Assembly (NCBI GenBank): GCA_041671325.1
Contig: JBAZBR010000001.1
Location: 221,332-285,331, forward strand
Origin: Patescibacteria group bacterium
GTDB taxonomy: Bacteria > Patescibacteriota > Patescibacteriia > PEXW01
Length of the DNA: 64,000 nucleotides
Reading direction: 5' to 3'
Shown here: positions 12,115 through 63,207 of the stretch, piece by piece
How the letters are laid out: each line of letters opens with the position of its first letter
Position numbering within the stretch: the first letter of the stretch is position 1
Notes under the pieces: generated by a model
The model's input: only the letters and a program-made list of their open reading frames with translations
Told to the model about the DNA's origin: nothing
Databases searched by the model: none
Translations under genes and position numbers: made by a program

Positions 12115-13326
12115 ATGCAAAGAATCGTTTTACACTTTGACATGAATTCGTACTTCGCCTCAGTCGAACAACAGGCGAACCCGTTTTTGCGCGGCCAGCC
12201 AGTGGGCGTCTGTTCAACCATGTCCAGGCGCGGTTGCATAATTGCTTCTTCCAAAGAAGCCAAGGCTTTTGGCGTCAAAACTGGCTGTCGGGTGGCTGAA
12301 GCGCAAATTTTGTGTCCGCAAATAAAATTAGTGGAAGTGGATCCGCCCAAGTACCGGACTACTACCCAGAAAATTTTTGGCTTGTGCAAAGATTATACCA
12401 GCGACATTGAATTATATTCAATTGATGAAGGCTTTTTGGATTTGACTGGACTGGTAAAATCTTTTCCAGAAGCGATTGGCATTGGCCAGCTTATAAAAGC
12501 CAGGATCAAGAATGAAGTCGGGGAGTGGCTGAATAATTCCATGGGTATTGCTTACACCCGCTGGCTGGCAAAATTTGGCAGCGATATTGCGCCCAAAGGC
12601 GGGTTGGTGGTGATTACGCCGGCCAATCGTTTAACATACCTGAAAGGCCGCGAACTGGAAGACGCCTGGGGCATTGCCGGGGCTTTGGCTAGCCGCCTGC
12701 AGGTGCTGGGCATCCAAACTTTAGACGAGTTGGCCAGGTATTCGCCTATTAACCTTTTGGAAATTTTTGGCATAAAAGGTTATGAACTTTGGGCCAATGT
12801 TAATGGCATTGAATTGGCTGGCTTGGCAGAAAAGCAGTTGCCAAAATCCATTGGCCACAGCCACGTTTTGCGCAAAAGGAATCATGATGAAAAGTTCCAT
12901 AAGGCCGTGATCATGCGGCTGGCGGAAAAAACCGGCCGGAGACTGCGGGAAATTGGCTTGGAAGGCCATGGCTTGTATGCCTTTATGAAGCTGGAGGGCT
13001 TAGGGGATTTTGGCGCCAGTAAAAAAGTCTTTAGGCCAATTATCACTACCCAAAGGATTTATAGCCAGACTTTGGAAATCCTGGAGCTGCACCTTAAAAA
13101 GGGCGTACCAACTTTTTTCGCCTTAGGCCTCTTCAATCTCCAACCCAAGTCAAACCAATTAAGCCTTTTTGAAAAGCCTAAATCCGAAGCTTTGGTCAGA
13201 GCATTAGACAGAATCAATAATAAATACGGCGAGGAGGCGATTGTCCAGGGTGATTTGGTGCGTTTAGGTTTTCAACATGTGCCAGACCGGATTGGTTTTC
13301 GGAAGACCGTAGGCTTAGATGACTAA
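12115..13326 (+). CDS. dinB: DNA polymerase IV (Y-family translesion polymerase)
   Basis: N-terminal HFDMNSYFASVEQ, YSIDEGFLD and helix-hairpin-helix and little-finger regions. ~400 aa. Confidence 0.9.
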   Translation: MQRIVLHFDMNSYFASVEQQANPFLRGQPVGVCSTMSRRGCIIASSKEAKAFGVKTGCRVAEAQILCPQIKLVEVDPPKYRTTTQKIFGLCKDYTSDIELYSIDEGFLDLTGLVKSFPEAIGIGQLIKARIKNEVGEWLNNSMGIAYTRWLAKFGSDIAPKGGLVVITPANRLTYLKGRELEDAWGIAGALASRLQVLGIQTLDELARYSPINLLEIFGIKGYELWANVNGIELAGLAEKQLPKSIGHSHVLRKRNHDEKFHKAVIMRLAEKTGRRLREIGLEGHGLYAFMKLEGLGDFGASKKVFRPIITTQRIYSQTLEILELHLKKGVPTFFALGLFNLQPKSNQLSLFEKPKSEALVRALDRINNKYGEEAIVQGDLVRLGFQHVPDRIGFRKTVGLDD

Positions 13327-16204: not shown

Positions 16205-17052
16205 AGGAAACAATTTTCCTGTTGATCATTGCCGAATCCACCAAATTGATAATTGTAAAAAAGCAAGGCAATAAACTTTTTAGCAAGACAAAAACTGCAG
16301 ACTTGTTTAAAAATGCAGATTCTTTGACTTTAATCAATCAAGTTTTTAAACTACAGAAAAATCAAAAATTAAACGGAATATTTTTAAGTATAGAAAAGCA
16401 AAGCTTTTCTTCAACTCGTGCCTTGGTGAGCATAGCCAATGCCTTGGCTTACGCATATAATTGTAAAGCCGTGGAGTTAAAAGTTTCTCTACCAAGCTCC
16501 CAAATTTCAAAACTTTTTACTCTTGGCAAAAATGAATTGTCCAAAACCATTACGCAATTTATTAAACCCACATACCTTAATTTGCCTAATATTACTAAAC
16601 CCAAATTAAAAATTAACGAATTTCATATTTGTTCGGGGGCATTAGTTTATGATCAAGTAAATAAAAAGTTTCTATTTATCAGACGAAAAGATACCAAAAA
16701 AATTGGTTTACCTAAAGGCCATCAAGAAAAGAATGAGAATTTAGGCTTTACCGCTAAAAGAGAAGCTGGCGAGGAAACTGGGTATTCTGATTTAAAATTA
16801 ATCGGTAAATTGAAAAGTATAAAATATAAATTTACGGTAAAGGGCGAGTTACATGAAAAAACCGAACACCAATTTTTATTATTATTGAATTCTTCTAAGA
16901 CAAAAAATAGGTTAAGCACCGGTGAAGTAAAAAATTTGGATAACCTGTGGCTTACGCCACAACAAGCTTTATTAGATCCGAATTTGTATCCAAATTTACA
17001 GGATACAATAAAAAAGGCTATTTTTATCTTGAAAAAACGAAATTTATTTTAA
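16201..17052 (+). CDS. Fusion protein: TsaB/YeaZ-like N-terminal domain plus C-terminal Nudix hydrolase domain
   Basis: The N-terminus aligns to TsaB (IFLLIIAEST...; EKQSFSSTRALVSIANALAYAY against GPGSFTGLRIGI..A.GLA). The C-terminus carries the Nudix box GHQEKNENLGFTAKREAGEETGY. Confidence 0.55.
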   Translation: MKETIFLLIIAESTKLIIVKKQGNKLFSKTKTADLFKNADSLTLINQVFKLQKNQKLNGIFLSIEKQSFSSTRALVSIANALAYAYNCKAVELKVSLPSSQISKLFTLGKNELSKTITQFIKPTYLNLPNITKPKLKINEFHICSGALVYDQVNKKFLFIRRKDTKKIGLPKGHQEKNENLGFTAKREAGEETGYSDLKLIGKLKSIKYKFTVKGELHEKTEHQFLLLLNSSKTKNRLSTGEVKNLDNLWLTPQQALLDPNLYPNLQDTIKKAIFILKKRNLF

Positions 17053-17882
17053 GTATTTACTGAAGCAAGATTTTTGTTGAAAAAATTAAAATTGAAGCGT
17101 TTATTTAATTTTAAACCAATAGCTTTAGAACCCACGATTTCTTCAGGTTTTTTTACTCCTATCCAGGAAGATGTAACTTGGTATCGTAAAGCCAAGCCTT
17201 TTTTGCCAAGCCAAGAATAAACATCTTCTGTTTTTGCGTTTAGAAATTCACCAATAAATGCAATCCCAGATTCCTTTAGTCTTAAGGCGCTAGATTGGCC
17301 TAAGCCTGGCAAAAACCTTATGGGTATTCGGTTTAAGGTCTGAGCATCGTTTTTATCATAAAATTGAAAGCCAGGTTGGCGTAAGGTGAGATTAGCAAGT
17401 TTGGCTAAAGTTGGACTGCTGCCAAAACCAATATTAACTTTGCATTCCAGCTCCTGCCAACAAGCATTTTGGATTTTTAAGAAAATTATTGCTCTTTCAA
17501 TAGATGTAGAGTAGGGAATAGTAAGCAGGATTTCATTATTCTTTTCCATAACAAACTCACCCCATTTTTTTGAAATTTTAATAAAAGCCCTGGAAAAACC
17601 TTTTAAAAAACCGGATTGAATGGGTCTAATTACCAATCGTGGAGTAATTTGAAAAGCTTTTTTTAAACTCATCCCTTTTTTTATGCCAAAGCTTGCAGCA
17701 ATAACATTGCAGTCAACAATAGTCAATTCTGAATTTATATTTTCGATAATTGCCAAAGGGACATTTCTAAATTGCGGATTGAGTGCCTCCTCCACGCTCG
17801 CGGCAAAATGGTTTATAGAAATATATAAATAATGCCTTGGGCTAAGATTTTCGAATGGTTGTTTTGAAGTTTTGTTATACAT
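17049..17882 (-). CDS. Y-family DNA polymerase paralog lacking catalytic carboxylates (ImuB-like), downstream of lexA
   Basis: YISINHFAASVEE aligns to DinB DMDxFFAxVE with both Asp replaced. YSTSIERAI replaces the S(I/L)DE motif. GIGSSPTLAKLA is the HhH region. Only 277 aa. Confidence 0.6.
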   Translation of the reverse strand: MYNKTSKQPFENLSPRHYLYISINHFAASVEEALNPQFRNVPLAIIENINSELTIVDCNVIAASFGIKKGMSLKKAFQITPRLVIRPIQSGFLKGFSRAFIKISKKWGEFVMEKNNEILLTIPYSTSIERAIIFLKIQNACWQELECKVNIGFGSSPTLAKLANLTLRQPGFQFYDKNDAQTLNRIPIRFLPGLGQSSALRLKESGIAFIGEFLNAKTEDVYSWLGKKGLALRYQVTSSWIGVKKPEEIVGSKAIGLKLNKRFNFNFFNKNLASVNT

Positions 17883-18104: not shown

Positions 18105-18722
18105 TTAATACTTGCGAATTAGGCCAATAACCTTTCCTTGGATAGTAACGTTTTTAACGTCAATAGGCTGATAATTTGGATTTGCCGGTTGAAGCCTAAT
18201 AAAATTTTTCTTACGGAAAAACTTTTTTAAAGTAGCATTCCCGTCATCCAAGAGCGCCACAACCATATCGCCATCTTTGGCTAATTGGGTTTTTTCCACC
18301 ACCACCAAATCACCATCATTTACTAAACTTTCAATCATTGAATCGCCTCTGACTTTCAAGATGTAAGCATTTTTCTTGCCGACTAAATTTTGCGGCACTG
18401 GGATCATGTCCTGCTTATCCTCAAAGGCTTCAATTGGCGAGCCAGCGGCAATAGTCCCAACCAGCGGCAATAAACTTGAAGCAAATTCCAAATCCGGTTT
18501 AAGATCTGGCTCGATAATTTCAATACCGCGCGTATTATTCTTATCTCTTTTTATAAACCCGGATTTTTCCAAAAAAGTCAGGTGTTCATGGACCGTGGCT
18601 AAGGAGGATAAGTCAAAAGCCTTGGCAATTTCCGTTAAAGTCGGGGCATAACCATGCTCTTGCATGTATTTTTTTAGAAAATCCAGAATAGCCCTTTTTT
18701 GTTTGTGTAATATTGGCGCCAT
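18105..18722 (-). CDS. lexA: LexA repressor (SOS regulator, S24 peptidase)
   Basis: N-terminal wHTH (LTEIAKAFDLSSLATVHEHLTFLEKSGFIKR), cleavage-site AAG, and catalytic VRGDSM...K of the S24 domain. Confidence 0.9.
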   Translation of the reverse strand: MAPILHKQKRAILDFLKKYMQEHGYAPTLTEIAKAFDLSSLATVHEHLTFLEKSGFIKRDKNNTRGIEIIEPDLKPDLEFASSLLPLVGTIAAGSPIEAFEDKQDMIPVPQNLVGKKNAYILKVRGDSMIESLVNDGDLVVVEKTQLAKDGDMVVALLDDGNATLKKFFRKKNFIRLQPANPNYQPIDVKNVTIQGKVIGLIRKY

Positions 18723-25842: not shown

Positions 25843-26862
25843 ATGAATAAAAAAATTTTATTAACAGGCGATCGGCCTACCGGTAAGCTGCACCTCGGCC
25901 ATTATGTCGGCAGCCTGGCTAACCGCTTGAAGTTTCAAAAAGAATATAACTGTTTTTTTATCATAGCTGATTACCAGGTTTTAACCGACCATTTGCAAGA
26001 TACCAAGCAAGTTCCGCAAAACGTGGAAGAGGTGATTTTAGATTGGCTTTCGATTGGCCTTGATCCTAAGCAAAGCACATTCTTCATCCAATCAGCCGTG
26101 CCGCAATTGGCTGAGCTGACCATGTATTTTTCCATGTTGGTGACTATTGCGCGTCTGCGCCGAAATCCCACCATAAAATCCGAAGCCCAAAATGTCCGGG
26201 TTGATTCAAATAAGGACAATATCACTTATGGTTTTTTGGGCTACCCAGTTTCCCAAGCGGCTGACATCTTGTTATTCCGACCAGATATCGTGCCAGTAGG
26301 CGAAGACCAATTGCCGCATATTGAACAGACCCGGGAGATTGCGGATAAGTTCAATTCGCTTTTTGGCAAGGTTTTTAAATTACCCAAAGCCATAGTCAGT
26401 GAAAATTCCAGGCTGCCGGGCTTGGACGGCAAGAATAAAATGAGCAAGAGTTTGGGCAACGCAATTTATCTTTCGGATTCAGCAGATGAAGTTAAGAAAA
26501 AAGTTATGACTGCTTACACTGACCCGACCCGGATCCGGGCCACTGACCCAGGTCATTTGCAGGGGAATGTAGTTTTTACTTATTTAGACGCATTTCATCC
26601 AAATAAGAAAGAATTGAACTTATTAAAGCAGCGTTACCAAAAAGGCCAAGTAGGGGACGTGGAAGTTAAAAAGATATTAATCGATGTTTTAAATGATTTC
26701 TTGGATCCAATCCACAAGAGAAGACAGGAATTTGAAAAGAATAAGAAATATTTAAAAACTATTTTGACTGAGGGTTGTGAGCAGGCTAGGGCAGTGGGCG
26801 AAAAAACTATGGTCGAGGTGCGTAAAGCCGTACATTACGATTATCCGGAGTTGCTGGGGTAG
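25843..26862 (+). CDS. trpS: Tryptophan--tRNA ligase
   Basis: TGDRPTGKLHLGHYVGS (HIGH) and KMSKSLGNAI (KMSKS), with class I c-subclass length. Confidence 0.95.
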   Translation: MNKKILLTGDRPTGKLHLGHYVGSLANRLKFQKEYNCFFIIADYQVLTDHLQDTKQVPQNVEEVILDWLSIGLDPKQSTFFIQSAVPQLAELTMYFSMLVTIARLRRNPTIKSEAQNVRVDSNKDNITYGFLGYPVSQAADILLFRPDIVPVGEDQLPHIEQTREIADKFNSLFGKVFKLPKAIVSENSRLPGLDGKNKMSKSLGNAIYLSDSADEVKKKVMTAYTDPTRIRATDPGHLQGNVVFTYLDAFHPNKKELNLLKQRYQKGQVGDVEVKKILIDVLNDFLDPIHKRRQEFEKNKKYLKTILTEGCEQARAVGEKTMVEVRKAVHYDYPELLG

Positions 26863-26920
26863 CTGAAATGCTTAGGATCAAAAAGGAGATTGCCACGTCG
26901 TCCCGCAGTCGCGGGACTTC
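26785..26920 (+). repeat. Direct repeat copy A: trpS 3' end (last ~26 codons plus stop) and downstream hairpin GTCCCGCagtcGCGGGAC
   Basis: ~83% identical to copy B at 27800-27927, read by eye. Both include the GATCAAAAG spacer and the hairpin. Confidence 0.7.
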
Positions 26921-26993
26921 TCGCAATGATAGGGGAAGGTTTTTGATAAATATTTTTTTAATCATTTATTGTTTGGGTTTTATGATTTAGTAT

Positions 26994-27812
26994 TTGTATA
27001 TGTTTAATATAGGTTACCGGACAATTTATCAAAAAGATATCCGTTTTGCCATAAAAGAAGCAAAAAAGAACGACTTTAAGGTTATTGAAATACATTTAAC
27101 CTCACCTCAGTTTAGTCCCTTTAAATATTCCTTAAAAGAATTAAAATTAATAAAGTATTTTGCTGCACGAGAAGACATTATTTTGCAAGTTCATGCTCCC
27201 TTAGAGCAGTCATTAATCTTTACTAATAAACAATTAAGAATTGGTGCGAAAAGACAGTTAGAGGAAATGATCAAGTTCGGTAGAAACTTAGGTGTAAAAT
27301 GTCTTACTTTGCATCCAGGTAAGGCGGCAATATATCATTTTGCTGATGGCAAGAAGGTGAAAGATGATGATGTCTACCCAAAATTTTATGGGGGACTTTT
27401 TGAGGATAGTATTAAGCATATTGTATCTATTGTCCCGAAAGATTTTTTTGTCTGTATTGAAAACACCGATAATTTCACTTCTCAATACCAAAAAGTCTTA
27501 AATAAATACTTGCCAAGCGGTAAATTATTTTTGACTTGGGATATAAGAAAAAATTATTCTTATAAAACTAATAAGTTGATTAAGGAACAATGGGGATTTA
27601 TCCAGAGGAATAAAGACTATGTAAAAAATTTGCATGTTAGCGGTTTCAGTATAACTCATGGGGAAATTAAGGGCTGGGAAAAAAGATTAGATAGGTTTAT
27701 TGGTCTGTTTGGAAATAGGAGATTATCGTTAATTATCGAAATTATGCCTCTCAAATATGCTCTTGAGGCAAAAAAAATAATAATTAAGACTGTAAACAGA
27801 CTAGGGCAGTAG
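26994..27812 (+). CDS. Xylose isomerase-like TIM-barrel protein (sugar phosphate isomerase/epimerase, AP endonuclease 2 fold); inserted accessory gene
   Basis: IEIHLTS..., ILQVHAP and GVKCLTLHPG strand motifs typical of the XylA/Endo IV-like TIM barrel. Confidence 0.55.
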   Translation: MYMFNIGYRTIYQKDIRFAIKEAKKNDFKVIEIHLTSPQFSPFKYSLKELKLIKYFAAREDIILQVHAPLEQSLIFTNKQLRIGAKRQLEEMIKFGRNLGVKCLTLHPGKAAIYHFADGKKVKDDDVYPKFYGGLFEDSIKHIVSIVPKDFFVCIENTDNFTSQYQKVLNKYLPSGKLFLTWDIRKNYSYKTNKLIKEQWGFIQRNKDYVKNLHVSGFSITHGEIKGWEKRLDRFIGLFGNRRLSLIIEIMPLKYALEAKKIIIKTVNRLGQ

Positions 27813-27927
27813 GGAAAGAAACCATGCAAGAGGTGCGTAAAGCCGTGCATTATGACTATCCCGAGTTGTTGAAGTAGATCAAAAGCAAAAAATATTTAGA
27901 AGTCCCGGTCAGAGCCGGGACTTTTTA
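27800..27927 (+). repeat. Direct repeat copy B: out-of-frame relic of the trpS 3' end (...RAVGKETMQEVRKAVHYDYPELLK*) plus the terminator GTCCCGGtcagaGCCGGGAC+T5
   Basis: Aligns codon-by-codon to 26785-26862 with ~14 substitutions. The terminator hairpin is also homologous. Confidence 0.7.
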
Positions 27928-28095
27928 GTTATCCACAGATTTTTTAGGAAATTACTAAGACTTGTCAAAATCGTCTAATTTTGTCGTGGTTGACGAGAAC
28001 ACTTTAGTGGTGTAAAATGGAATAGCAGGGTGAAAAGTGGATAAAAGTGGGGATAAGTCATTTCACTTGTGCATAACTATTTCAAAACCCTTTAA

Positions 28096-28537
28096 GTTAA
28101 AGCAAATGTTTATAGGCGAGTATCATCATGGCATAGACGAAAAGGGCCGGTTAGCCATACCGGTTAAGTTTCGTGAACGCCTTTTGCATGGCGCCGTGGT
28201 CACTCGGGGAATTGATAAGTGCCTTTTTGTTTACCCCCAGCGGGACTGGCTGCAGCTGGCAGATAAGCTGGCAAAACTACCTATTTCCCAAGCGAACACT
28301 CGGGCTTTTTCCCGTCTCATGCTGGCTGGAGCCATGCAATTGGAAGTTGATAAGCAGGGCCGGGTGGTTTTGCCGGATTATCTAAGGAAATATGGTTCGA
28401 TAAAGAAAAAAGTGGTGGTGGCAGGGCTGTATAATCGTTTGGAAATTTGGGATGAAAATGCCTGGGAAAAATATAAGACTAGCACAGAAAAAACCTCCGG
28501 TACTATCGCTGAAAACCTTGGCGCTTTAGGCGTTTAA
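28096..28537 (+). CDS. mraZ: Transcriptional regulator MraZ
   Basis: MFIGEYHHGIDEKGRLAIP.KFR and a second repeat GRVVLPDYLRKY; first gene of the dcw cluster. The track ORF starts at 28037. Confidence 0.9.
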
Positions 28538-40622: not shown

Positions 40623-41226
40623 TATGCGCGTCTATTTCTTCCAAGCCCCCAGCGACAAGCCCCGGTTTGAAAATATCCGAATGGAGATTTTGGAAGTTTT
40701 AGACATGAAAAAAGTTTTTTATGTTACTTCTGACGGCAAAAACAGTTTGGATATTCCCGCCGAAGAATTGGAAGCCTTGAACGAAAGCGGGGGATCCATG
40801 CTAGATAAGATGGATGCTTTAGTCATTGAAGGCTCCACGCCAGATGCGGACATTGGCTATTTATTGGCTTATGCCATGAGTTTGCGACGACCAACCTTGT
40901 ATTTGTATGATAAGGATATTTCCAATAAAGGCGTTTTGAAGTTTTTAGGCAATCGCCAAATCCCCGGGCACATCCATGTCAAATCATATTCCGGTGAACA
41001 GGTTAAGGATTTCGTGGACAAATTCATAACGGATTTGCAAGGCGATGAAGCCGAGGAATTGCCTAGCATTAAATTCACCTTACGCATTACCCCGCAAATG
41101 GAGAGGTACTTGCAATGGAAAGCCAAGAAATTCAAGATGACCAAGGCAGATTTCCTGCGGGAAAAAATTTCCGTAGAGCTGATTGAAAAGGATGAGGAAT
41201 ATCAAAAATATTTAAAGAAGAAATGA
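40594..41226 (+). CDS. Hypothetical protein with a nucleoside 2-deoxyribosyltransferase-like core and a C-terminal ribbon-helix-helix-like tail. The likely start is the ATG at 40624 (MRVYFF).
   Basis: ALVIEGSTPDADIGYLLAYAMSLRRPTLYLYD resembles the NDT/YtoQ-fold active region. The C-terminus is TLRITPQMERYLQWKAKKFKMTKADFLREKI. Confidence 0.4.
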   Translation: MGWKKRKPNSMRVYFFQAPSDKPRFENIRMEILEVLDMKKVFYVTSDGKNSLDIPAEELEALNESGGSMLDKMDALVIEGSTPDADIGYLLAYAMSLRRPTLYLYDKDISNKGVLKFLGNRQIPGHIHVKSYSGEQVKDFVDKFITDLQGDEAEELPSIKFTLRITPQMERYLQWKAKKFKMTKADFLREKISVELIEKDEEYQKYLKKK

Positions 41227-41227
41227 T

Positions 41228-42640
41228 ATGATTGAACTATTAAAAATAATTTATTGGTTAGTTGCAATTACGAACTTTATTGTAGCAGTTTTCGTTTTGT
41301 TAAAGGGGATAAAGAAAAAGCCTAACTGGTTATTTTTTCTTTTGGTAATGGCATGTAATGGCTGGTTAATCTCAAATTATTTTTCATATTTCGTCAGAGA
41401 TCTAAATGTTGCTTTAATTGCAGCACGGGTATCTTACTTTTTTGCCTCATTAATAATGCCATTTTTAATTCTTTTTGTTTATAACTTCCCATTCAAGACA
41501 AGTTTTAAGAATAAAAATTATTTCATTATAATTATTCCTGCAATACTTTCTGTGTTTTTATCTTTTGGTCCATGGTTTGTTAAAAGTATTGAGATTAAAG
41601 AAAAAATTAATTTCTATGTTAATGGGAATTTGCATTTATTTTATACTTTATCGATTGGATTATATCTAATCATTTATTGTTACATTTATTTTAAGAAGTT
41701 TAAACAAGCGAATCCGATTGAAAAATCAAAATTAAAATATATTGTAATAGGGTTAATAATTACCGCACTTTTTAGTATTTATTTTGATTTATTATATCCA
41801 TATATTCATAAAATTGAAGCTTGGTCTGGCGGAGTTTATGGTTCACCAACAACAATAATTTTTACTCTATCTGTTGCTTATGCGATTTTACGTTACAGGC
41901 TTTTAGACATACGGATCGTCATTCAAAAAAGCTTTGTGCAATTGATGACTTTTGTGATTTTGTTTGCGATTTATGCTTATGCTCTGATTTTAATTCAGAA
42001 TGTTTCCAGCAAATCCGTGGCTTTAAATAATAATACTGGTTTATTAATTACTATTTTTGTCATTGCTTTAACTATTGAACCTCTCCGCAAATGGATCTAC
42101 AAACTTATTGACGGGATTTTTGAGAATAAGGAAAAACAAAGGCAAGAGGCCTTGCAAAGGGTGCAATTAGTCACTAATTCCACATTGCAATTCCAAACTT
42201 TACTAACCAAGACCCAAGTTGAATTGGAATCTGTTTTCGGGTCAGGAATTGACTTTTACTTGGCAGAAAGAAAGACTGGGAATTTTATCCAATATCCAAA
42301 AGGTGATAAAAAATTGGCTATGGAAAATTCTGTAGGTATGAAAATTTTACCGGGTAATATTCTCATTGCTGATGAATTACCCTATAGGATTGAAAACGGT
42401 GAGACTGCATTAATCCACACCTCGGATTGGTTAAAACAAAACCATTACTCAGCAGTTGTGCCCATTGGCTCAGAAGAGGAAATGGTAGGCATCTTTTGCC
42501 TTCCAATTAGTACCGGCCATCAAAAACCCATTACCGCAGACATGGTTAGGTTTTTGAAGGAATTCCAAACCTCGGTCTTTTTCCCTTTTGCCAGCGCTTA
42601 TGCCTACAAGTTGGCGATTGAGAGAATTGCGCTGAAGTAA
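41228..42640 (+). CDS. 7TM receptor-type sensor domain protein (HisKA_7TM-like) with a cytoplasmic GAF-like C-terminal domain; no output domain
   Basis: Seven predicted TM helices including ILRYRLLDIRIVIQ, then a ~190-aa soluble domain. Confidence 0.45.
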   Translation: MIELLKIIYWLVAITNFIVAVFVLLKGIKKKPNWLFFLLVMACNGWLISNYFSYFVRDLNVALIAARVSYFFASLIMPFLILFVYNFPFKTSFKNKNYFIIIIPAILSVFLSFGPWFVKSIEIKEKINFYVNGNLHLFYTLSIGLYLIIYCYIYFKKFKQANPIEKSKLKYIVIGLIITALFSIYFDLLYPYIHKIEAWSGGVYGSPTTIIFTLSVAYAILRYRLLDIRIVIQKSFVQLMTFVILFAIYAYALILIQNVSSKSVALNNNTGLLITIFVIALTIEPLRKWIYKLIDGIFENKEKQRQEALQRVQLVTNSTLQFQTLLTKTQVELESVFGSGIDFYLAERKTGNFIQYPKGDKKLAMENSVGMKILPGNILIADELPYRIENGETALIHTSDWLKQNHYSAVVPIGSEEEMVGIFCLPISTGHQKPITADMVRFLKEFQTSVFFPFASAYAYKLAIERIALK

Positions 42641-45150: not shown

Positions 45151-46407
45151 ATGCCAAAACTAATTAGTTTAAAAGCGATTGAAATTTTAGATTCACGCGG
45201 TAACCCAACTTTGCAGGTCAAAGCAGATTTTGATGATGGCAGCACTGGTACAGCTGGTGTGCCTTCAGGTGCTTCTACTGGTAGCCATGAAGCTTTGGAA
45301 TTGCGGGACAATGACCAGCGTTTTCATGGTAAAGGCGTCAGGAAAGCTGTTAGTAATGTCAACCAAGAAATCGCCAAAGTTTTAGTGGGTAAGGAAATTA
45401 AAGATTTGAAAAAAATTGATAAAAAACTTTGTACCTTGGATGGTACAAAAAATAAAGCCAGGCTGGGAGCCAACGCCATCTTGGGCGTTTCTTTGGCTAT
45501 GGCCAAAGCTTTGGCCAAAAGCCAAAAACAGCCTTTATATAAATTTTTAATTCAAGAGTATGGATTTAAGCTTGGACAAGTGAAATTTCCCAGGCCAATG
45601 TTCAATGTCATAAATGGCGGCTTGCATGCGGATTCGGGCTTGTCATTTCAGGAATACATGGTCATCCCTAAAACTGGAAATTTTCCAGAAGATGTCAGGT
45701 GCGGAGCAGAAGTTTTTCAAAGTTTAAAAAAATTATTGACAAACAAAAGCCTTTCTACTTTAGTCGGGGACGAAGGCGGTTTCGCGCCGAATTTAAGGTC
45801 TAATGAGGAGCCTTTGCAATTATTAGCTCAAGCCGTGGAACAAGCGGGTTATGAATTAGGCAAGGATGTGGAATTAGGTTTAGATGCGGCGGCAACCCAA
45901 TTACTCAAACCTGAAGGTGCGTACTCCCTGGCTTTGGAAGGCAAGGGCTTAACACCTGAGCAAATGATTGCCTTGTATTTGGAATGGCATAAAAAATACC
46001 ATTTATTTTCAGTTGAAGATGGCTTAGCAGAAGATGATTGGGAAAATTGGCAAGCCCTGACCTCGGGATTAACCAAAGCCAGCATGATGGTAGTCGGTGA
46101 CGATCTTTTTGTGACTAATACAGAAAGATTAAAAATTGGCATTCAAAAGGGCGTTGCTAATTCAATTTTAATTAAAGTTAACCAAATTGGAACTTTGACT
46201 GAAACCATTGAAGCCATAAAATTAGCGCAAAAAAATAATTATCAAGTGGTAGTTTCGCATCGTTCAGGTGAAACCTGTGATAGCACGATTGCGGATTTAG
46301 CCTTGGCAGTAGGCGCAGGCTTTATCAAGTCTGGCTCTTTATCCAGAAGCGAAAGATCCGCAAAATATAACCGTCTGCTGACTATTTGGGAGGAAACCAA
46401 TGGCTAA
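45151..46407 (+). CDS. eno: Enolase
   Basis: AIEILDSRGNPTLQV, SHRSGETCD and other canonical enolase motifs. Confidence 0.95.
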   Translation: MPKLISLKAIEILDSRGNPTLQVKADFDDGSTGTAGVPSGASTGSHEALELRDNDQRFHGKGVRKAVSNVNQEIAKVLVGKEIKDLKKIDKKLCTLDGTKNKARLGANAILGVSLAMAKALAKSQKQPLYKFLIQEYGFKLGQVKFPRPMFNVINGGLHADSGLSFQEYMVIPKTGNFPEDVRCGAEVFQSLKKLLTNKSLSTLVGDEGGFAPNLRSNEEPLQLLAQAVEQAGYELGKDVELGLDAAATQLLKPEGAYSLALEGKGLTPEQMIALYLEWHKKYHLFSVEDGLAEDDWENWQALTSGLTKASMMVVGDDLFVTNTERLKIGIQKGVANSILIKVNQIGTLTETIEAIKLAQKNNYQVVVSHRSGETCDSTIADLALAVGAGFIKSGSLSRSERSAKYNRLLTIWEETNG

Positions 46408-47974
46408 AATAGTTTCGCAAATCAAACCATATTTGCCGGTTGTTTTAGTCGTAATTGACGGTTGGGGAATTGGCAAGCCCGGACCTTGGAACGCCATAAC
46501 CCAAGCAAAGACCCCGAATTATACCTATCTCTTGAAACGCTACCCTAACACAAGCCTTGAAGCTGGCGGGAGGGCGGTTGGTCTTTCTAAAGGCCAAGAT
46601 GGCAATAGCGAAGCCGGGCACATGAACATCGGGGCGGGCCGCGTGGTCTTGCAGGACGAAGTGGAAATTTCACGGGCTATCACGACTGGCGCATTTTTCC
46701 GAAACCCGGCATTCATCCGGGCTATCCGTCATGTCCAGAAGCATAACTCCACTCTTCATCTGATTGGGATGATGGGCAATAACCAAAGTGCCCATGCCAG
46801 TCCCGACCACCTCCTCGCCCTGCTGACCTTTGTCCGACTGATGAGGCTGAAGCATGTAAAATTGCATATTTTTACAGATGGTCGGGACAGCCCGCGTTTT
46901 GCGGCCATCAAGATTTTAAAAATGCTGGAGATGGAGCTAGGGAATACGCGCATTGCTTCGGTTACCGGCCGGTATTATGCCATGGATCGCGCATTGCACT
47001 GGGGGCGCATTAAACAGACATATGACCTACTCACCCTTGGGAGCGGGTTGCGGGCAACCAGCCCAGAAAGCGCAATCCTGGAGGCTTATAACCGGAATGG
47101 AAGTGACGAATTCATTATGCCAACAGCAGTGGTGCCTGAAGGACATCGCCCGAGCGTCGTGAAGGATAATGATTCAATTATCTTCTTTAACTTGCGCAGT
47201 GACCGGGCCCGACAGCTCACCAAGGCTTTCGTACAGCTGGATTTTTCTGGCTTCCGCCGGAAAAAAATTATTAAGAATTTAGTTTTTGTTGCCATGACGG
47301 ACTTTGGGCCAGATTTGCCAGGAGTCCTTTCAGCTTTTCCCAGCCGGGATATTGATGATACATTACCCATGGTTTTAAAAGGCTATAGGCAGTTGTACGT
47401 ATCCGAAAGTGAAAAATATGCGCATATGACCTATTTTTTTAACGGTGGATATGATCACCCCGTGGCAGGTGAAGATCGCGTCTCTATACCTTCACCAAAA
47501 GTGCTGACTTACGATAAACGGCCAGCCATGTCCACGGCAAAAGTCACGCAGTACGTCATTCGCGACCTAAAAAAACAAGCCCACGATTTTATTGCCCTAA
47601 ACTATGCGGCGCCAGATATGGTGGCGCACACCGGGCACATGCACGCGTCGATTAAGGCAGTTGAAGCCGTGGATAAAGGTCTTGGCATATTGGAACGAGC
47701 AGTTCGTAAGGCACATGGTACTCTGATTATCACCGCTGACCATGGTAACATTGAAGAATTGAAAAATATTAGGACTGGCGAAGTTGATACAGAACATTCT
47801 AATACCCCCGTACCTTTTATTTTAGTGAATAAAAATTATAAAAAGTGCAAATTAAGGAAATTTGGGTGTCTGGCCAATATCGCTCCGACCATCCTGGATT
47901 TAATGCAAGTCAGTAAGCCGAAACTGATGATAGGAAAAAGCTTATTAATTAAAAAGCAAAAACATGAATGCTGA
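46400..47974 (+). CDS. gpmI: 2,3-bisphosphoglycerate-independent phosphoglycerate mutase (iPGM), copy 1, GC-rich core
   Basis: VIDGWGIG, GNSEAGHMNIGAGRVV, TADHGN and the phosphatase/transferase domains. GC content of 46480-47750 is clearly elevated. Confidence 0.9.
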   Translation: MAKIVSQIKPYLPVVLVVIDGWGIGKPGPWNAITQAKTPNYTYLLKRYPNTSLEAGGRAVGLSKGQDGNSEAGHMNIGAGRVVLQDEVEISRAITTGAFFRNPAFIRAIRHVQKHNSTLHLIGMMGNNQSAHASPDHLLALLTFVRLMRLKHVKLHIFTDGRDSPRFAAIKILKMLEMELGNTRIASVTGRYYAMDRALHWGRIKQTYDLLTLGSGLRATSPESAILEAYNRNGSDEFIMPTAVVPEGHRPSVVKDNDSIIFFNLRSDRARQLTKAFVQLDFSGFRRKKIIKNLVFVAMTDFGPDLPGVLSAFPSRDIDDTLPMVLKGYRQLYVSESEKYAHMTYFFNGGYDHPVAGEDRVSIPSPKVLTYDKRPAMSTAKVTQYVIRDLKKQAHDFIALNYAAPDMVAHTGHMHASIKAVEAVDKGLGILERAVRKAHGTLIITADHGNIEELKNIRTGEVDTEHSNTPVPFILVNKNYKKCKLRKFGCLANIAPTILDLMQVSKPKLMIGKSLLIKKQKHEC

Positions 47975-49567
47975 ATCATTTGTACCTCGAGTCAGGCCAC
48001 TGGTATTATTAATTTTAGACGGCTGGGGAATTGGCAAGCCTTCCAGAAGCAATCCCTACAGCATTGCTAAATTGCCTAATTATGAAGATTTGATTTTGCA
48101 TTATCCAGCCATAGCCTTGCAGGCTTCCGGTGAGTCCGTAGGTTTACCTTGGGGTGAGATGGGCAATTCTGAAGTCGGCCACGTGAATTGGGTTCGGGAA
48201 AAATCATATACCAAAATCTTCCCAGGATTAACCGGGCAATATCTGACGGCAGTTTTTTCAAAAACCCAGCCTTGTTATCAGCTATCGAAAATACCAAGAA
48301 ACGGAATACCGCCCTGCACCTTATGGGCCTGGTAAGTTCTGGCGGAGTCCACAGTTTTAATGAACATGCTTATGCCTTGATTGAAATGGCCAAGCAACAA
48401 GGCGTGAAAGAACTCTATTTCCATGCTTTTTTGGATGGCCGAGATACGCCGCCAAAAAGCGCGGAAAATTTTATCGGCAAGCTGATAAGCCACATGAAAG
48501 AAGTTGGCTTAGGCAAGATCGCCACCTTAAGCGGCAGATTTTACGCCATGGACCGTGATAATCGCTGGGATAGGGAAGAAAAAGCCTTTAAAGCCTTGGT
48601 CAAGGGTGAAGCGGATAAAAAAGGCCCAGACCCAATTGCTTTAATCCAGCAAAGTTATGCGGTTGGAGTGTATGATGAAGAATTCATCCCAACTGTCATC
48701 ACCAATGAAAAAGGCGAGCCTGTTGGCACTATAAAAGACGGTGATAGTATTATAACTTTTAATTTTCGGCCAGACCGCATGCGGCAAATTACTAAGGTTT
48801 TTACCCTACCAGGTTTTGAAAAATTTGACCGGGGAACGTATTTTAAAGATTTGTTTTTTGTGACCATGACTGAATACGACAAGGACTTGCCGGTTATCGT
48901 GGCTTTTCCGCCAGAAGAAATAAATTACCCGATTGCTAGGGTTATTTCTGATGCGGGTTTAAAGCAAATGCATATAGCCGAAACTGAAAAATACGCGCAT
49001 GTCACTTATTTTTTCAATGGCGGACATGAACAAGCTTATCCCAATGAAGACCATGTGCTCATTCCCAGTCCGCATGTTTCCAGTTATGACCGCAAACCAG
49101 CCATGTCTGTTCGGGAAATCACCGAGAGGTTGGTTAAAGAACTGGCTAAAGGTACCTATGATTTTTATGTCGTTAATTTTGCCAATGCGGATATGGTTGC
49201 CCATACTGGTAATATGCAAGCTACTATTGAGTCTTTAGAAATTTTGGATGAATGTTTAAAACAAGTAGTGGAAGCAGTTTTAGCCATAAATGGCGCTTTA
49301 TATATCACGGCTGACCATGGCAATGCTGAAGAATTAGTAAACATGCAAACCGGCTCGATTGACAAGGAACATTCAACCAGCCCAGTTCCGTTAATCGCCG
49401 TAGCGAATTTTTGGAAAGACACTTCCCCATATATAATCCCAGGCGGCATGTCAGCCCTGAATTCAGCCCAGCCTGTGGGCATTTTGGCAGATGTGACCGT
49501 AACAATCCTGGAAACTTTGGGTTTGCCAGTGCCGGAAGAAATGACGGGCCGAAATTTATTAAATTAA
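47964..49567 (+). pseudogene. gpmI: Second iPGM paralog (native AT-rich composition) interrupted by a +/-1 frameshift near 48186
   Basis: The two overlapping track ORFs 47964-48335 and 48188-49567 together cover a full-length iPGM. The frame changes between GNSEVGHVN and (I/L)GSGKIIYQ. Confidence 0.6.
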
Positions 49568-59583: not shown

Positions 59584-61632
59584 ATGAATTTAAAGCCTTT
59601 ATTTAATCCTAAAAGCATTGCCGTAATAGGTGCTTCACATGACCGGAAAAAGCTTGGTAATGTAATTTTTCGGAATTGCCTGGCTTTTGGGTTCAAGGGT
59701 AAAGTCTATCCAATCAACCCTAAGTTAAAGAAAGTGGAAGGCCGTCAGGCATTTCCCAATTTAATCAGTTTATCAAAAGCAGTTGATTTGGTAATAATTG
59801 TTACTCCTGCACCCACAGTCCCTCAAATTTTGAAAGATGCAGTTAAGGCAAAGGCAAAGTCAGTAGTAATTATCAGCGCCGGGTTCGGGGAAACTGGACT
59901 GCGCGGTAAAAATTTAGAATCGCAAATTAAAAAAATCATTAAAAATAAGATTCCAGTTATTGGCCCAAATTGTTTGGGGGTTGTTTTGCCATATTTGAAA
60001 TTGAATGCTTCTTTTGGCGTGGGTTTGCCTAAAAATGGCGGGGTCAGTATTTTATCCCAATCCGGCGCCATAGCCGTAGCCGAAATGGAGTGGGCCGCCA
60101 GCCAAAACATTGGTTTTAGATCAATCATAAGTTTGGGCAATAAAACCATTTTGAATGAAACGGATTTATTAAAAACTTTAGGTGAAGACAAGGGCACCAA
60201 AGTAATTTTGATGTATTTGGAAGATATTCGTGAAGGCCGAAAGTTTTTACAAATTGCCCAGCAAGTTACCAAGCGTAAACCCGTGGTCATTTTACGAGCA
60301 GGCCGCAGCCAAGCCGCAGCCAAGGCAGCGAAGTCCCATACTGGCGCTTTAGCTGGTTCCAGCCAAGTCACTGATGCGGTCTTGAAACAAGCTGGCTGCT
60401 TAGTAGTCAATAATACGGATGAGTGGTTCACCTTGGCTGAAGTTTTTGACCAACCAAAAAAGCCAGCCGGTAACCAGGTCGCGATTATCACTAATGCTGG
60501 CGGCCCAGGAATTTTAGCCACTGATGCGGTTGATAAAGCAGCTTTGCAGCTCTCGCAATTTTCCAAGAAATCTGACAGTTCATTAAAAAAAGTTTTGCCT
60601 CCAACTGCTGCCCTACACAATCCCATTGACGTGGTAGGGGATGCGCCGCCAGAAAGATACCAAAAAGCTTTAAATATAGTTTTAGCAGATAAAGCCGTGG
60701 ATATGGTTTTGGTCATTTTGACCCACCAATTAGTCACCGATTCCTTAAAGGTCGCTAAAATAATCATTGCCGCCCAAGCCAAAACTTCAAAACCAATCTT
60801 GCCGGTATTTATTGGCGGCGCTAAAGTCGCCAAAGGCATTGAGGTAATGGAAAAAGCTGGTTTGCCGGTTTTTGCTTATCCAGAGCAAGCCGTGTTTGCG
60901 GCTGAAGCGCTTTATAATTCCAAATTTGAAAAAAGGATTCCAGTTTTGCCGCTTTTGAAATCAAAAAAAATAGTTACTATGTCAGGGGTAGCAATTTCCG
61001 GCGAAGCAGCGGCCAAGGTTTTGAGTAAAGCCAAATTAAAAGTTTTACCGACATTTAAGCTCAAGAATTCAGTTCAAGCCATCAACATTGCAAAACGTTT
61101 GCATCTGCCAGTGGTCATGAAAATTGATTCACCAAAAATTTTGCATAAGACTGAAAGCGGGGGAGTTCTGGTAGACTTACACACTCCCAGCATGGTGAAA
61201 TCCGCTTTTAAGAAAATGCAAAATAAATTCAAAACCGTCTTAAAAAATCCGGATTCTAATATCGTTCTGCAAGACCAAAGGTTTGGCGGTTTGGAGCTGA
61301 TTATTGGCGCCATCCAAGACCCGCAATTCGGGCCGGTGGTAATTTTGGGCTTGGGCGGCATTTACGTGGAAGCTATCCGAAAAGTCAATTACCTTTGTGC
61401 GCCTATGGATAAAATTTCCGCACAAAGATTTTTGGAAAATTCAAATGTTTGGCCAATTTTAAAAGGCGTGCGGGGCCAAACTTTTGCAGTGAATAAAGTC
61501 GCCGAAATTTTAGTCAAAGTCAGTAATTTCATTGCCAAGCATCCGGAAATCAAGTCTTTGGACTTAAATCCAGTTTTAGTCGGCTGTGACCAGGCATTTA
61601 TTTTGGATGCCCGGATTGAATTCCTAAAATGA
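59584..61632 (+). CDS. Acetyl-CoA synthetase (ADP-forming), fused alpha/beta (NDP-forming acyl-CoA synthetase)
   Basis: CoA-binding N-terminus SIAVIGAS..., succinyl-CoA-synthetase-like flavodoxin and ligase domains, and C-terminal ATP-grasp. Confidence 0.85.
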   Translation: MNLKPLFNPKSIAVIGASHDRKKLGNVIFRNCLAFGFKGKVYPINPKLKKVEGRQAFPNLISLSKAVDLVIIVTPAPTVPQILKDAVKAKAKSVVIISAGFGETGLRGKNLESQIKKIIKNKIPVIGPNCLGVVLPYLKLNASFGVGLPKNGGVSILSQSGAIAVAEMEWAASQNIGFRSIISLGNKTILNETDLLKTLGEDKGTKVILMYLEDIREGRKFLQIAQQVTKRKPVVILRAGRSQAAAKAAKSHTGALAGSSQVTDAVLKQAGCLVVNNTDEWFTLAEVFDQPKKPAGNQVAIITNAGGPGILATDAVDKAALQLSQFSKKSDSSLKKVLPPTAALHNPIDVVGDAPPERYQKALNIVLADKAVDMVLVILTHQLVTDSLKVAKIIIAAQAKTSKPILPVFIGGAKVAKGIEVMEKAGLPVFAYPEQAVFAAEALYNSKFEKRIPVLPLLKSKKIVTMSGVAISGEAAAKVLSKAKLKVLPTFKLKNSVQAINIAKRLHLPVVMKIDSPKILHKTESGGVLVDLHTPSMVKSAFKKMQNKFKTVLKNPDSNIVLQDQRFGGLELIIGAIQDPQFGPVVILGLGGIYVEAIRKVNYLCAPMDKISAQRFLENSNVWPILKGVRGQTFAVNKVAEILVKVSNFIAKHPEIKSLDLNPVLVGCDQAFILDARIEFLK

Positions 61633-61913
61633 CTTTAGATATTCCCATAAGCCAAATAGGCAACCCAACTGTATTTTTTTCCCGTTTGGGTTATCATCAT
61701 GAGCCCAATGGCAGTTTTGCCAAAAGGGTCAGCGGCATGCCTTTTCCTCGTTACCATTTATATTTTGAGGTTGGCACAGACATGGTACGCGTAAATTTGC
61801 ATTTGGACGCCAAAAAACCCAGTTACCAAGGTACCAGCGCCCATGCCGGGGAATATGACGGGGAAGTGGTGGAAATGGAGCTTACAAGGATTAAACAGTA
61901 CGCGGGAGTTTAG
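61629..61913 (+). CDS. Hypothetical 94-aa protein; its 3' end is duplicated at 62713-62742
   Basis: ORF overlapping the acs stop by 4 nt; ends ...TRIKQYAGV*. Confidence 0.4.
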   Translation: MTLDIPISQIGNPTVFFSRLGYHHEPNGSFAKRVSGMPFPRYHLYFEVGTDMVRVNLHLDAKKPSYQGTSAHAGEYDGEVVEMELTRIKQYAGV

Positions 61914-61951
61914 CGGGAAATATCTTGAAATTTTTTGTGAAATAAGTATTT

Positions 61952-62704
61952 ATGGTTAAAATCAATCGACAAACCTCAATTATAATTGCGCTAATATCAT
62001 TTATTATATTAATTTTATCTTTTAGTCTACCAGAGGAAAATGGCGCAATTCTCATGATGATTGGTATTTTAGGTTTAATAGTTGGTCTGGCAGTCGGTAT
62101 TAATTCTTCATGGAAAAGAACAATTATTAATAAAAATGAATTTGATCTGGTTTACACATTCCATAAGACTAATTTTATTTCGCCCATAAGCGTTATTTTC
62201 AATATCTTGAGCCTGCTTTGGCTGCTTATTGCCAAAATTCAATCCGGCCAAACTTTAGAAATAGCATTAATATTTTTTATAGGTTTTTGGCTTTTGTCTG
62301 CAATTGAACTTATTGTCAAGATTGCCAAACAGTCAAATTTTGATGGTTTTACATTTGGTTTTAATAAAGAGGGTATCACGTTGCTCAAGGGTGATTGGGT
62401 GAAAAAATATGCTTGGGAAAATTATAGAGGATTTAATACAGCGTACTCAACTCGCTACGGTGAATTTCTTTCGTACCTCCCTTATATCTCAATATTTTTT
62501 CACGAAACGGATAAGTACACCATAAATTTATTTTATTCGGAAAAGGGCAGGCAGCAGTCCATGGAACAGACCGCTCCGGGGTATAAAGTAAAAAAGTATC
62601 ATCAAATTGAAACTCAGAAAAATAACTTGTCTCAAGTAATTTCATATCTTAAAAAATATTTACCCCAAATTCAAAAAGATATTTCTTTGAAGGAACGCTT
62701 ATAA
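61952..62704 (+). CDS. Hypothetical membrane protein (inserted accessory gene)
   Basis: 250 aa with 4 TM helices in the N-terminal half and a soluble C-terminal half. Confidence 0.45.
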   Translation: MVKINRQTSIIIALISFIILILSFSLPEENGAILMMIGILGLIVGLAVGINSSWKRTIINKNEFDLVYTFHKTNFISPISVIFNILSLLWLLIAKIQSGQTLEIALIFFIGFWLLSAIELIVKIAKQSNFDGFTFGFNKEGITLLKGDWVKKYAWENYRGFNTAYSTRYGEFLSYLPYISIFFHETDKYTINLFYSEKGRQQSMEQTAPGYKVKKYHQIETQKNNLSQVISYLKKYLPQIQKDISLKERL

Positions 62705-62806
62705 ATATTATCACAAGGATTAAACAGTACGCTGGGGTTTGAAGCTAAGAAAAACCGCCTCCGAATTGGGGGCGGTTGTCGTTCTTGTTTTACTCGTTTT
62801 GGTTCA

Positions 62807-63070
62807 TTAGGCTTGCTGGAGACTGGCTTTGTCAGCCTCGGCGAGTATTTGCAGAACGTAGCCGGCACCAGCCAAAATGAGCGCTATTACGCCGACCATT
62901 ACGACCGCATGCCGGAATATCACGAGAATGAATTCCGGAAGCTTGCCATCCAAAAGCAGTGAAAGAGTCAGGACAGCGATGGTTGCCAAAAAGGCAAGGG
63001 TGCCGATGATATTGAGTTTCTTTGCCTCCGCCAAGCGGACAGGGATCGGCTTTAAGGTACTCAATGACAT
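62807..63070 (-). CDS. Small membrane protein (hypothetical); GC-rich
   Basis: 87 aa with two TM helices. GGAGG SD immediately upstream on the minus strand. Confidence 0.4.
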   Translation of the reverse strand: MSLSTLKPIPVRLAEAKKLNIIGTLAFLATIAVLTLSLLLDGKLPEFILVIFRHAVVMVGVIALILAGAGYVLQILAEADKASLQQA

Positions 63071-63207
63071 ACGTTCCTCCCCATATTAGTGTATTGGTGA
63101 TTTTTGGTTTTCTAAAAAAAATAGCACTTAATTCGTGCTCTGTCAAGCTCGTGCTAATAAAACTTTTAAGGATATTTAGCAAATATAATTTATGCTATAA
63201 TTTAACA

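Follow-up and report, generated by a model that had tools for sequence, protein, structure and literature searches.

Background

Foreign DNA that has come to rest behind a conserved gene is known from several systems, of which homology-facilitated illegitimate recombination (HFIR) offers the nearest parallel to the locus reported here: the interval between trpS and mraZ in a 64,000-nucleotide stretch of a Patescibacteria genome (the window; part of a 618-kb contig, European Nucleotide Archive [ENA] ERZ27249449), where one xylose-isomerase-like triosephosphate isomerase (TIM)-barrel gene lies between two diverged copies of the trpS 3' end. HFIR is typical of naturally competent species, and has been described in Streptococcus pneumoniae, Acinetobacter baylyi and Pseudomonas stutzeri; its joints usually show 3-10 bp of microhomology and its inserts are of about 1 kb (PMC3240628). 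The present locus shares with it a one-sided homologous anchor beside ~1 kb of foreign DNA, the far end of which is joined at microhomology, and competence has been shown in the host phylum, in Saccharibacteria, which take up DNA naturally and incorporate linear molecules through homologous recombination (PMC10633639). It differs in that the event is inferred from a natural scar, in that the joint is placed within sequence that has homology to the anchor (so that a stranded tail results, not a plain deletion), and in that the microhomology, at 13/14 nt, stands at the long end of the reported range.

Other described systems resemble the locus in part. At icd of Escherichia coli K-12, the target of e14 and phage 21 (PMC13626634, and Hill et al. 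1989 as cited there), the incoming 3' end likewise keeps the reading frame, and the displaced icdC end survives as a diverged fragment with mainly silent differences; e14, however, is a 15-kb prophage with an integrase and an att core, whereas here the insert is a ~0.85-kb one-gene cassette without recombinase or phage genes. Type VI secretion system (T6SS) effector-immunity modules and displaced rhs C-termini, for which an HFIR-like mechanism was proposed by the authors who described them (PMC5361080), also enter behind a conserved anchor and shift old 3' ends and orphans downstream as relics, but these are toxin/immunity arrays under diversifying selection, whereas the present locus has an essential aminoacyl-tRNA synthetase gene as anchor and an unrelated accessory enzyme as cargo, and retains only a tail. 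The minimal mobile elements of Neisseria (PMC3787668, PMC1797815) occupy a fixed slot between conserved genes with differing cassettes of one or a few genes, as is seen here between trpS and mraZ and, elsewhere in the window, between a 94-aa gene and the pyruvate:ferredoxin oxidoreductase (POR) gene; they are exchanged by homologous recombination in both flanks and leave no duplicated gene end, whereas the right-hand join here is non-homologous. Campbell integration of non-replicating circular DNA, finally, also leaves direct repeats flanking the insert, but those seen here are very short and diverged, and no circle was found in the databases searched.

We report that the trpS locus is most likely a recombination scar of horizontal gene gain, that is, a natural example of a known process and not a new kind of element. 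The two trpS tails are probably the donor and resident alleles left behind by an integration that was guided by homology.

Results

A repeated trpS 3' end on either side of a TIM-barrel gene

The order of the locus is trpS, hairpin A, TIM-barrel gene, second trpS 3' end, hairpin B and mraZ leader. The features are as follows, in window coordinates.

25843-26862, + strand: trpS (tryptophan--tRNA ligase, 339 aa), intact; PF00579, E = 1e-66; its present 3' end is copy A.
26776-26871, + strand: repeat copy A, unbroken from the functional gene: final 28 codons of trpS, stop codon TAG (26860-26862) and first part of the spacer.
26900-26917, + strand: hairpin A, GTCCCGC-AGTC-GCGGGAC, the homologue of terminator B; stem of 7 bp, U-tract absent.
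26938-26999, + strand: promoter-like leader of the TIM cassette, with TTGATA at 26943 and a -10-like box, TTTTATGATTTAGT.
27000-27812, + strand: accessory gene for a xylose-isomerase-like/AP-endonuclease-2 TIM-barrel protein of 270 aa (PF01261); ~30% GC.
27770-27786, + strand: the point where the TIM 3' end meets the trpS relic, within A/T-rich microhomology common to both (TIM ...AAAAAAAATAATTA..., trpS ...AAAAAAGATAATTA...).
27791-27877, + strand: repeat copy B, what is left of a trpS allele: its final 28 codons and stop (CKQTRAVGKETMQEVRKAVHYDYPELLK, then stop); out of frame with the TIM gene.
27898-27926, + strand: terminator B, a 12-bp stem (core GTCCCGG...CCGGGAC) and a T-run, abutting the mraZ leader block TTTTTAGTTATCCACAGATTTTTT.
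27922-28537, + strand: mraZ leader/promoter and mraZ, conserved; TTGACG-17-TAAAAT at 27990-28018; synteny with relatives restarts at 27922.

The repeat is real and far beyond chance. A self-BLAST search of the 64 kb recovered it at E = 4e-15, a repeat search matched 26776-26871 to 27791-27886 at 78% identity over 96 ungapped nt, and MAFFT aligned the copies at 82% over the limits proposed in an earlier reading made without database searches (the sequence-only reading), which had put the figure at ~83%. At the protein level 22/27 residues match. In full, the repeat takes in the last ~29-33 codons of trpS, the stop, a spacer and a GTCCCG...CGGGAC hairpin (26776-26919 against 27773/27791-27925). 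It is therefore longer than the ~26 codons first described: it covers at least 29 codons and, if a 4-nt deletion is allowed for, comparison with real trpS genes takes copy B back ~33 codons, to ~27773. Total tail homology comes to ~150 nt at ~79% identity. The longest perfect run (17 nt, GAGGTGCGTAAAGCCGT) lies in the middle of the repeat, with similarity continuing on both sides; a GATCAAAA motif is present in both copies at a different offset from the stop, and the spacer between copy B and terminator B is 24 nt.

The hairpins GTCCCGCAGTCGCGGGAC (26900-26917) and GTCCCGGTCAGAGCCGGGAC (27902-27921) are the sole matches to GTCCCG-N3-12-CGGGAC in the 64 kb, where none is expected, and on this ground they belong to the repeat. 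A hairpin thus stands at both copies, as had been claimed, but a terminator in the proper sense does not: terminator B is canonical (12-bp stem and U-tract, fold z = -4.2), whereas hairpin A is not. Hairpin A is probably a leaky terminator and, because it lacks a U-tract, probably lets some trpS transcription run on into the TIM gene; terminator B would still insulate the mraZ/dcw promoter. An Rfam scan of 25-29 kb gave no match. The hairpin was also considered as a recombination site and rejected in that role, the motif being unique to the two trpS tails and having no part in the second instance described below.

The cargo gene and its junction

The TIM protein matches PF01261 at 36.8 bits (cutoff 31.1). 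Its probable start is the ATG at 27000, which gives 270 aa, as in all homologues, and not the TTG at 26994; the length of 272 aa given in the sequence-only reading is likely to need this small correction. The insert is compositionally foreign, with ~30% GC against 40-46% in its flanks. We collected 47 homologues at 48-83% identity; all those with a named source are from Patescibacteria, to which the family appears, from these sequences, to be restricted. All of the homologue contexts examined are chromosomal and none is beside trpS. Conservation of the TTGATA and TTTTATGATTTAGT boxes extends to the upstream regions of TIM genes that lie in unrelated contexts, and comparison with TIM loci in at least six other contexts sets the limits of the cassette at 26965-26978 and at exactly 27781. 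The closest relatives of the TIM gene, P0002 and P0003, were rejected as donors, as they sit behind an unrelated gene.

The predicted structure (AlphaFold2 [AF2] model; predicted local distance difference test score [pLDDT] 93) matches ketose 3-epimerases and endonuclease IV about equally well, with a Foldseek probability of 1.0 and template modelling (TM) scores of 0.6-0.76 for these families. No sequence match was found in the PDB, and the matches to the CbiR phosphodiesterase and to Nfo were weak and below threshold. Six residues are invariant in the family (H65, H105, E154, D181, H212 and E247); by number, these presumably resemble the Glu-Asp-His-Glu site of ketose 3-epimerases together with part of the endonuclease IV metal site. 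The idea that the TIM protein is an endonuclease that mobilizes its own gene was rejected, given that the fold cannot separate an epimerase from endonuclease IV and that the second instance carries unrelated cargo, from which it also follows that the mechanism is independent of the cargo.

The homologues end in ...EAKKII-S/N-x-LL-(K/R)(H/Y) and a stop, whereas the window protein ends in ...EAKKII-IKTVNRLGQ. Its natural last 5-8 codons are missing and are replaced by 9-10 codons drawn from the junction and tail B; the reading frame enters copy B and stops at an out-of-frame TAG (27810-27812). Copy B is thus out of frame, as proposed in the sequence-only reading, but it does not lie just past the TIM stop, which falls inside it. 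The protein with this 9-10-residue foreign C-terminus is probably functional, to judge from the alignment, because the replaced end falls in a region that varies among the homologues. At the junction TIM homology ends at 27781, and homology to real trpS genes begins at ~27773. The TIM 3' end (GCAAAAAAAATAATTA, taken from L087) and trpS (TTAAAAAAGATAATTAC in L088, encoding KKII) share 13/14 nt there, an approximate length in that both sequences are proxies for the parents.

Divergence of the two tails

The tails differ at 18 positions over 28 codons, with dS 0.95, dN 0.14 and dN/dS 0.15 (Nei-Gojobori; Fisher p = 3e-4 for synonymous against nonsynonymous differences). In the conserved core, EVRKAVHYDYPELL, 5/5 differences are synonymous, and the hairpin stems differ by a compensatory swap of C:G to G:C. 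When neutral decay was simulated by placing 18 substitutions at random in one copy, an unbroken frame and stop with equally few replacements survived in only 0.05% of trials (P~5e-4). Purifying selection and the compensatory hairpin pair mark the tails as alleles of two lineages and not as a duplicate that decayed in situ; as far as the substitution pattern tells, most of the divergence would have accrued while both tails belonged to working trpS genes of separate lineages. Each tail is closest to the other (79%), at a distance comparable with that among the window, L004 and L088 (the relatives introduced below), which are 72-76% identical in this segment. On all three counts (dN/dS, hairpin compensation and a distance like that among relatives), the proposal that the copies differ at the level of separate species was borne out.

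Position of the probable resident tail and contents of the slot in relatives

The relatives compared at trpS, with TrpS ~90% identical, were L004 (the Parcubacteria metagenome-assembled genome SURF_31) and L088-L093. A scan of genome contigs, a search of 5.8 billion proteins and context look-ups yielded only two TrpS relatives at ~90%; against L004 and L088 the window TrpS is 89-90% identical over its full length. Synteny with both ends at the trpS stop and restarts at 27922. In the window, L004 and L088 alike, a terminator directly abuts the invariant block TTTTTAGTTATCCACAGATTTTTT, with a stem sequence in L004 and L088 that differs from that of terminator B, whereas tail A and hairpin A are followed by sequence unrelated to the relatives. 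Because tail B and terminator B occupy the ancestral position of the trpS 3' end beside the mraZ leader, tail B is probably the displaced resident end, and tail A, hairpin A and the TIM cassette are probably imported, as this comparison of sequences suggests.

The three genomes hold three different cargos in the trpS-mraZ slot: the TIM gene in the window, an RNase III-like 234-aa gene (reverse strand) with a 190-aa open reading frame (ORF) in L004 (6021-7640), and a 121-aa ORF of no known family in L088 (6048-6872). In both relatives the trpS stop precedes the cargo and the conserved terminator/mraZ leader follows it, and neither slot contains a relic of a trpS tail. The comparison with related genomes called for by the sequence-only reading was thus answered in part: neither of the two closest relatives has the insert, both carrying other cargo, but among the relatives found no empty trpS-mraZ allele was seen.

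Recurrence of the signature

We scanned the window for genes whose last 27 nt and stop codon are repeated within 3.5 kb downstream, with the upstream side as control. There were two downstream hits (trpS and the 94-aa gene) and none upstream. The second instance comprises the following features.

61884-61913, + strand: copy 1, the last nine codons and TAG of a conserved 94-aa gene (61629-61913).
61952-62704, + strand: cargo, a predicted membrane protein of 250 aa; low GC (~34%), no family match.
62713-62778, + strand: copy 2, the same nine codons (62713-62742) and a canonical terminator (62753-62777).

Copy 2, which lies directly behind the 250-aa gene, differs from copy 1 by two synonymous changes and by TAG to TGA; the repeat measures only 30 nt, and the target shares no motif with trpS. 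The slot between the 94-aa gene and POR (window 61629-63207) also holds an 87-aa reverse ORF. It is empty in L115, L116 and L118, where the stop of the 94-aa gene runs straight into the POR promoter, and in L117 it is filled by four genes (Macro-domain, 67-aa ORF, AF_1845-like and heliorhodopsin). This is the one clear recurrence in the window (61884-61913/62713-62742), where two had been announced.

A third instance lies outside the window, in L094 (4840-5915; JGI Ga0376277_0016542) and L095, where a TIM homologue of 77% aa identity is found. In L094 the last ~10 codons of the upstream zinc-ribbon gene and its terminator are present a second time in diverged form, flanking the TIM gene (CTCCTCCGCCCC..CGGGCGGATTTTT; 88% identity in 33 nt, and an indel of 17 nt across the stop); the architecture is that of the window, and the target is unrelated. 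A survey of flanking repeats at ~20 TIM loci against 39 control genes showed an apparent but heterogeneous excess, in which only L094 was convincing, and when the relic scan was run on ~950 kb of loci fetched from elsewhere, no additional convincing case turned up, nor did one in ~212 kb of other Patescibacteria loci. The notion of a general route of gene gain in the lineage therefore has the second instance to suggest it, but nothing convincing was added by these other loci.

Several further candidates were set aside. In L102 (3560-6060; JGI Ga0265297_10003432) genes of 75 and 67 aa bracket a TIM gene and a 189-aa gene, and have near-identical promoter/terminator modules and different bodies; we regard such repeated modules as another phenomenon. 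The flanks of L087 are merely paralogues of 32% identity. A tandem pair of genes for 2,3-bisphosphoglycerate-independent phosphoglycerate mutase (iPGM) lies at 46400-49567 in the window: the first is intact (524 aa, GC ~0.50), and the second is split by a frameshift (47964-48335, 48188-49567; GC ~0.43) and is 39-53% identical to the first at the aa level. The pair was rejected as a further recurrence, being a different thing; it could be an earlier stage in the in-situ displacement of a resident by an incoming xenologue, or a sequencing frameshift. AT-rich repeats around lexA (18105-18722, - strand) were likewise rejected as a different thing. They are direct repeats of 48 nt (18072-18119/18781-18825, 79%), with a third related copy at 16597-16631, and may be regulatory boxes rather than insertion scars.

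Discussion

A proposed course of events

The route that we tentatively prefer, at even confidence or slightly less, is HFIR with a linear substrate. The donor DNA, from a related Patescibacteria lineage, would have carried trpS (or its 3' part), the hairpin and then the TIM cassette with its own promoter-like region, and the recipient chromosome would have had the order trpS, terminator, mraZ. Entry would have been by natural transformation, as a linear molecule. At one end a homologous crossover inside the conserved trpS body, which is 80-88% identical among relatives (against 65-74% in the last ~80 codons), would have served as anchor; at the other, which had no homologue in the recipient, the TIM 3' end (...EAKKII) would have been joined illegitimately to the resident trpS ~33 codons from its end (...KKII...), at the A/T-rich microhomology of 13/14 nt. 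As the outcome, trpS would end in the donor tail A and the donor hairpin without a U-tract, the TIM gene would lose its last few codons, and the resident tail B and its terminator would be stranded at their native position before the mraZ leader, where they would still terminate. Tail A is then predicted to be wholly donor and tail B wholly resident. In agreement with this course, the homologous anchor adjoins the foreign segment on one side only, the right side being the join of the TIM gene to the trpS relic, and a short microhomology is found at the illegitimate joint (13/14 nt, 27770-27786).

Several observations weigh against this account. The collections searched contain no genome with tail A, hairpin A and a full-length TIM gene in sequence, and none with tail B on an intact trpS, and position is the sole ground on which donor and resident are told apart. 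A mosaic analysis of trpS against L004 and L088 found no clear breakpoint (the only max-chi2 signal was weak and on the 5' side); because the three lineages are about equidistant for every gene compared and no 3' breakpoint was seen, such an analysis cannot assign donor and resident. The microhomology, in A/T-rich sequence, could be partly coincidental. Competence is carried over to the host lineage by analogy with Saccharibacteria, from which it is known. Published E. coli data, moreover, favour the Campbell alternative: there, 56/60 integrants in which 109-950 bp of the homologous segment was duplicated had arisen by single crossover of re-circularized DNA, and the HFIR products had deletions (PMC3240628).

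Alternative explanations

In that alternative, which we hold to be unlikely but the most serious of the rivals, a circle carrying a trpS 3' fragment, the hairpin and the TIM gene, closed at the microhomology, recombined once within the ~150-nt tail, so that both tails would be reciprocal chimeras of donor and resident; in a variant, more of trpS was present on the circle, and a later deletion between the 13/14-nt repeats shortened the long duplicate that resulted. Direct repeats of a homologous segment flanking an insert are the classical product of such a crossover and are what is found here; the junction could equally be a circularization or deletion joint, and divergence of the copies under selection fits as well. 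Yet homology of ~150 nt at ~79%, with a longest perfect run of 17 nt, makes a poor RecA substrate, as does the 30 nt of the second instance, a repeat too short for an efficient single crossover although unproblematic for an anchor that lies upstream. Transformation, besides, brings in single-stranded linear DNA, and two rare steps would be needed. No homologue of the TIM gene was found in IMG/VR, PLSDB or INPHARED, thus no circular, plasmid, phage or viral copy, and the short contigs with TIM genes have ordinary chromosomal flanks and nothing that plainly suggests circularity, in a check that did not extend to terminal overlaps. Because the repeats are short and diverged, no circular copy was found and one event suffices in place of two, we favour the linear route; of the Campbell-type crossover put forward in the sequence-only reading, integration guided by trpS homology is retained, and the circular intermediate, for which no episomal, viral or plasmid copy was found, is the less probable part. 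A remnant of a site-specific element with a replacement tail, like e14 and phage 21 at icd/icdC or the integrative and conjugative elements (ICEs) at fda, either since stripped of its integrase and most of its genes or an integrase-less cassette mobilized in trans, appears improbable. The outward signature is that of icd/icdC around e14, where the gene is kept intact by the 3' end borne on the element (PMC13626634); here too the duplicated target 3' end keeps trpS intact, its reading frame being unbroken after the insertion, and the 17-nt identical block GAGGTGCGTAAAGCCGT could be a crossover core. That block, however, is not at the proximal edge of the repeat and has similarity on both sides. 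Moreover, a Pfam scan of the insert and of ~50 window ORFs turned up neither phage genes nor any gene for an integrase, recombinase or transposase; the insert is one gene of metabolic type with its own promoter-like region, known from many chromosomal contexts; the target of the second instance is another gene, with which trpS has no motif in common; and truncation of the TIM gene at the junction is not what an att-site boundary predicts. Nor do other mobile systems match: an integron cassette would call for an attC site at its end and for intI/attI nearby, but the window ORFs scanned include no integrase, and the hairpin motif, which was examined without a model of attC core motifs, does not recur in the second instance at copy 1; a transposon or insertion sequence (IS) would call for a transposase, terminal inverted repeats and a short identical target-site duplication, whereas the repeats are of 96-150 nt at ~79% and those ORFs include no transposase.

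Local tandem duplication of the trpS 3' end, followed by divergence and by insertion of the TIM gene between the copies, would account for the direct tandem orientation and for the tails being each other's closest relatives. We think it very improbable, as neutral decay would be expected of such a copy, in place of which there is a dN/dS of 0.15, an intact frame and stop and a compensatory hairpin change (P~5e-4), and as the divergence equals a between-species distance, yet copy B has suffered a single 4-nt deletion. An assembly chimera of two co-occurring strains deserves even less credence: in its favour, the assemblies come from metagenomes and the Logan contig breaks off ~130 nt past copy B, but the arrangement is identical in sequence in two differently built assemblies (ENA ERZ27249449, with its 618-kb contig, and Logan SRR6484324; the pipelines differ and the samples are possibly shared), NCBI and JGI are also among the sources listed, the 96-nt repeat at 78% offers no k-mer long enough for a mis-join, and overlap between strains cannot create the junction of the TIM gene with the trpS tail. 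At the other extreme stands a dedicated pathway, independent of cargo, that inserts promoter-bearing single-gene cassettes of ~0.8-1 kb at the 3' ends of conserved genes and supplies a replacement tail, by an integrase in trans or by tail-swapping coupled to competence, and that would be distinct from integrons and from phage-type integration. Hints in its direction are the two instances with unrelated cargo in 64 kb, the third in L094 and the precise TIM boundaries in at least six contexts, but we regard it as a long shot; if it did exist, the target gene would stay intact, and the old tail and terminator would insulate the downstream operons.

Other features of the window

The lexA gene mentioned above lies in a low-GC island (31-36%, at 15.6-18.8 kb, within the segment 12115-18825) together with a truncated Y-family polymerase gene (17049-17882, - strand); a second Y-family polymerase is at 12115-13326. 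GC falls to 24-29% at 41200-42200, inside a gene for a HisKA_7TM-like membrane protein of 470 aa (41228-42640).

Conclusion

Patescibacteria have tiny genomes, and gene gain in them is poorly documented at sequence resolution. The trpS locus keeps both alleles of the anchor, a microhomology joint and the native terminator, so that the event can be reconstructed almost base by base. Its signature, a gene tail and stop repeated downstream with silent differences, is searchable and could allow events of this kind to be tallied in metagenome-assembled genomes; annotators, for their part, should be prepared at these sites for stranded relics of gene tails and for cargo genes that are fused or slightly shortened. 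For the biology of these organisms, the locus suggests that conserved housekeeping genes act as landing pads for single accessory genes from related lineages.

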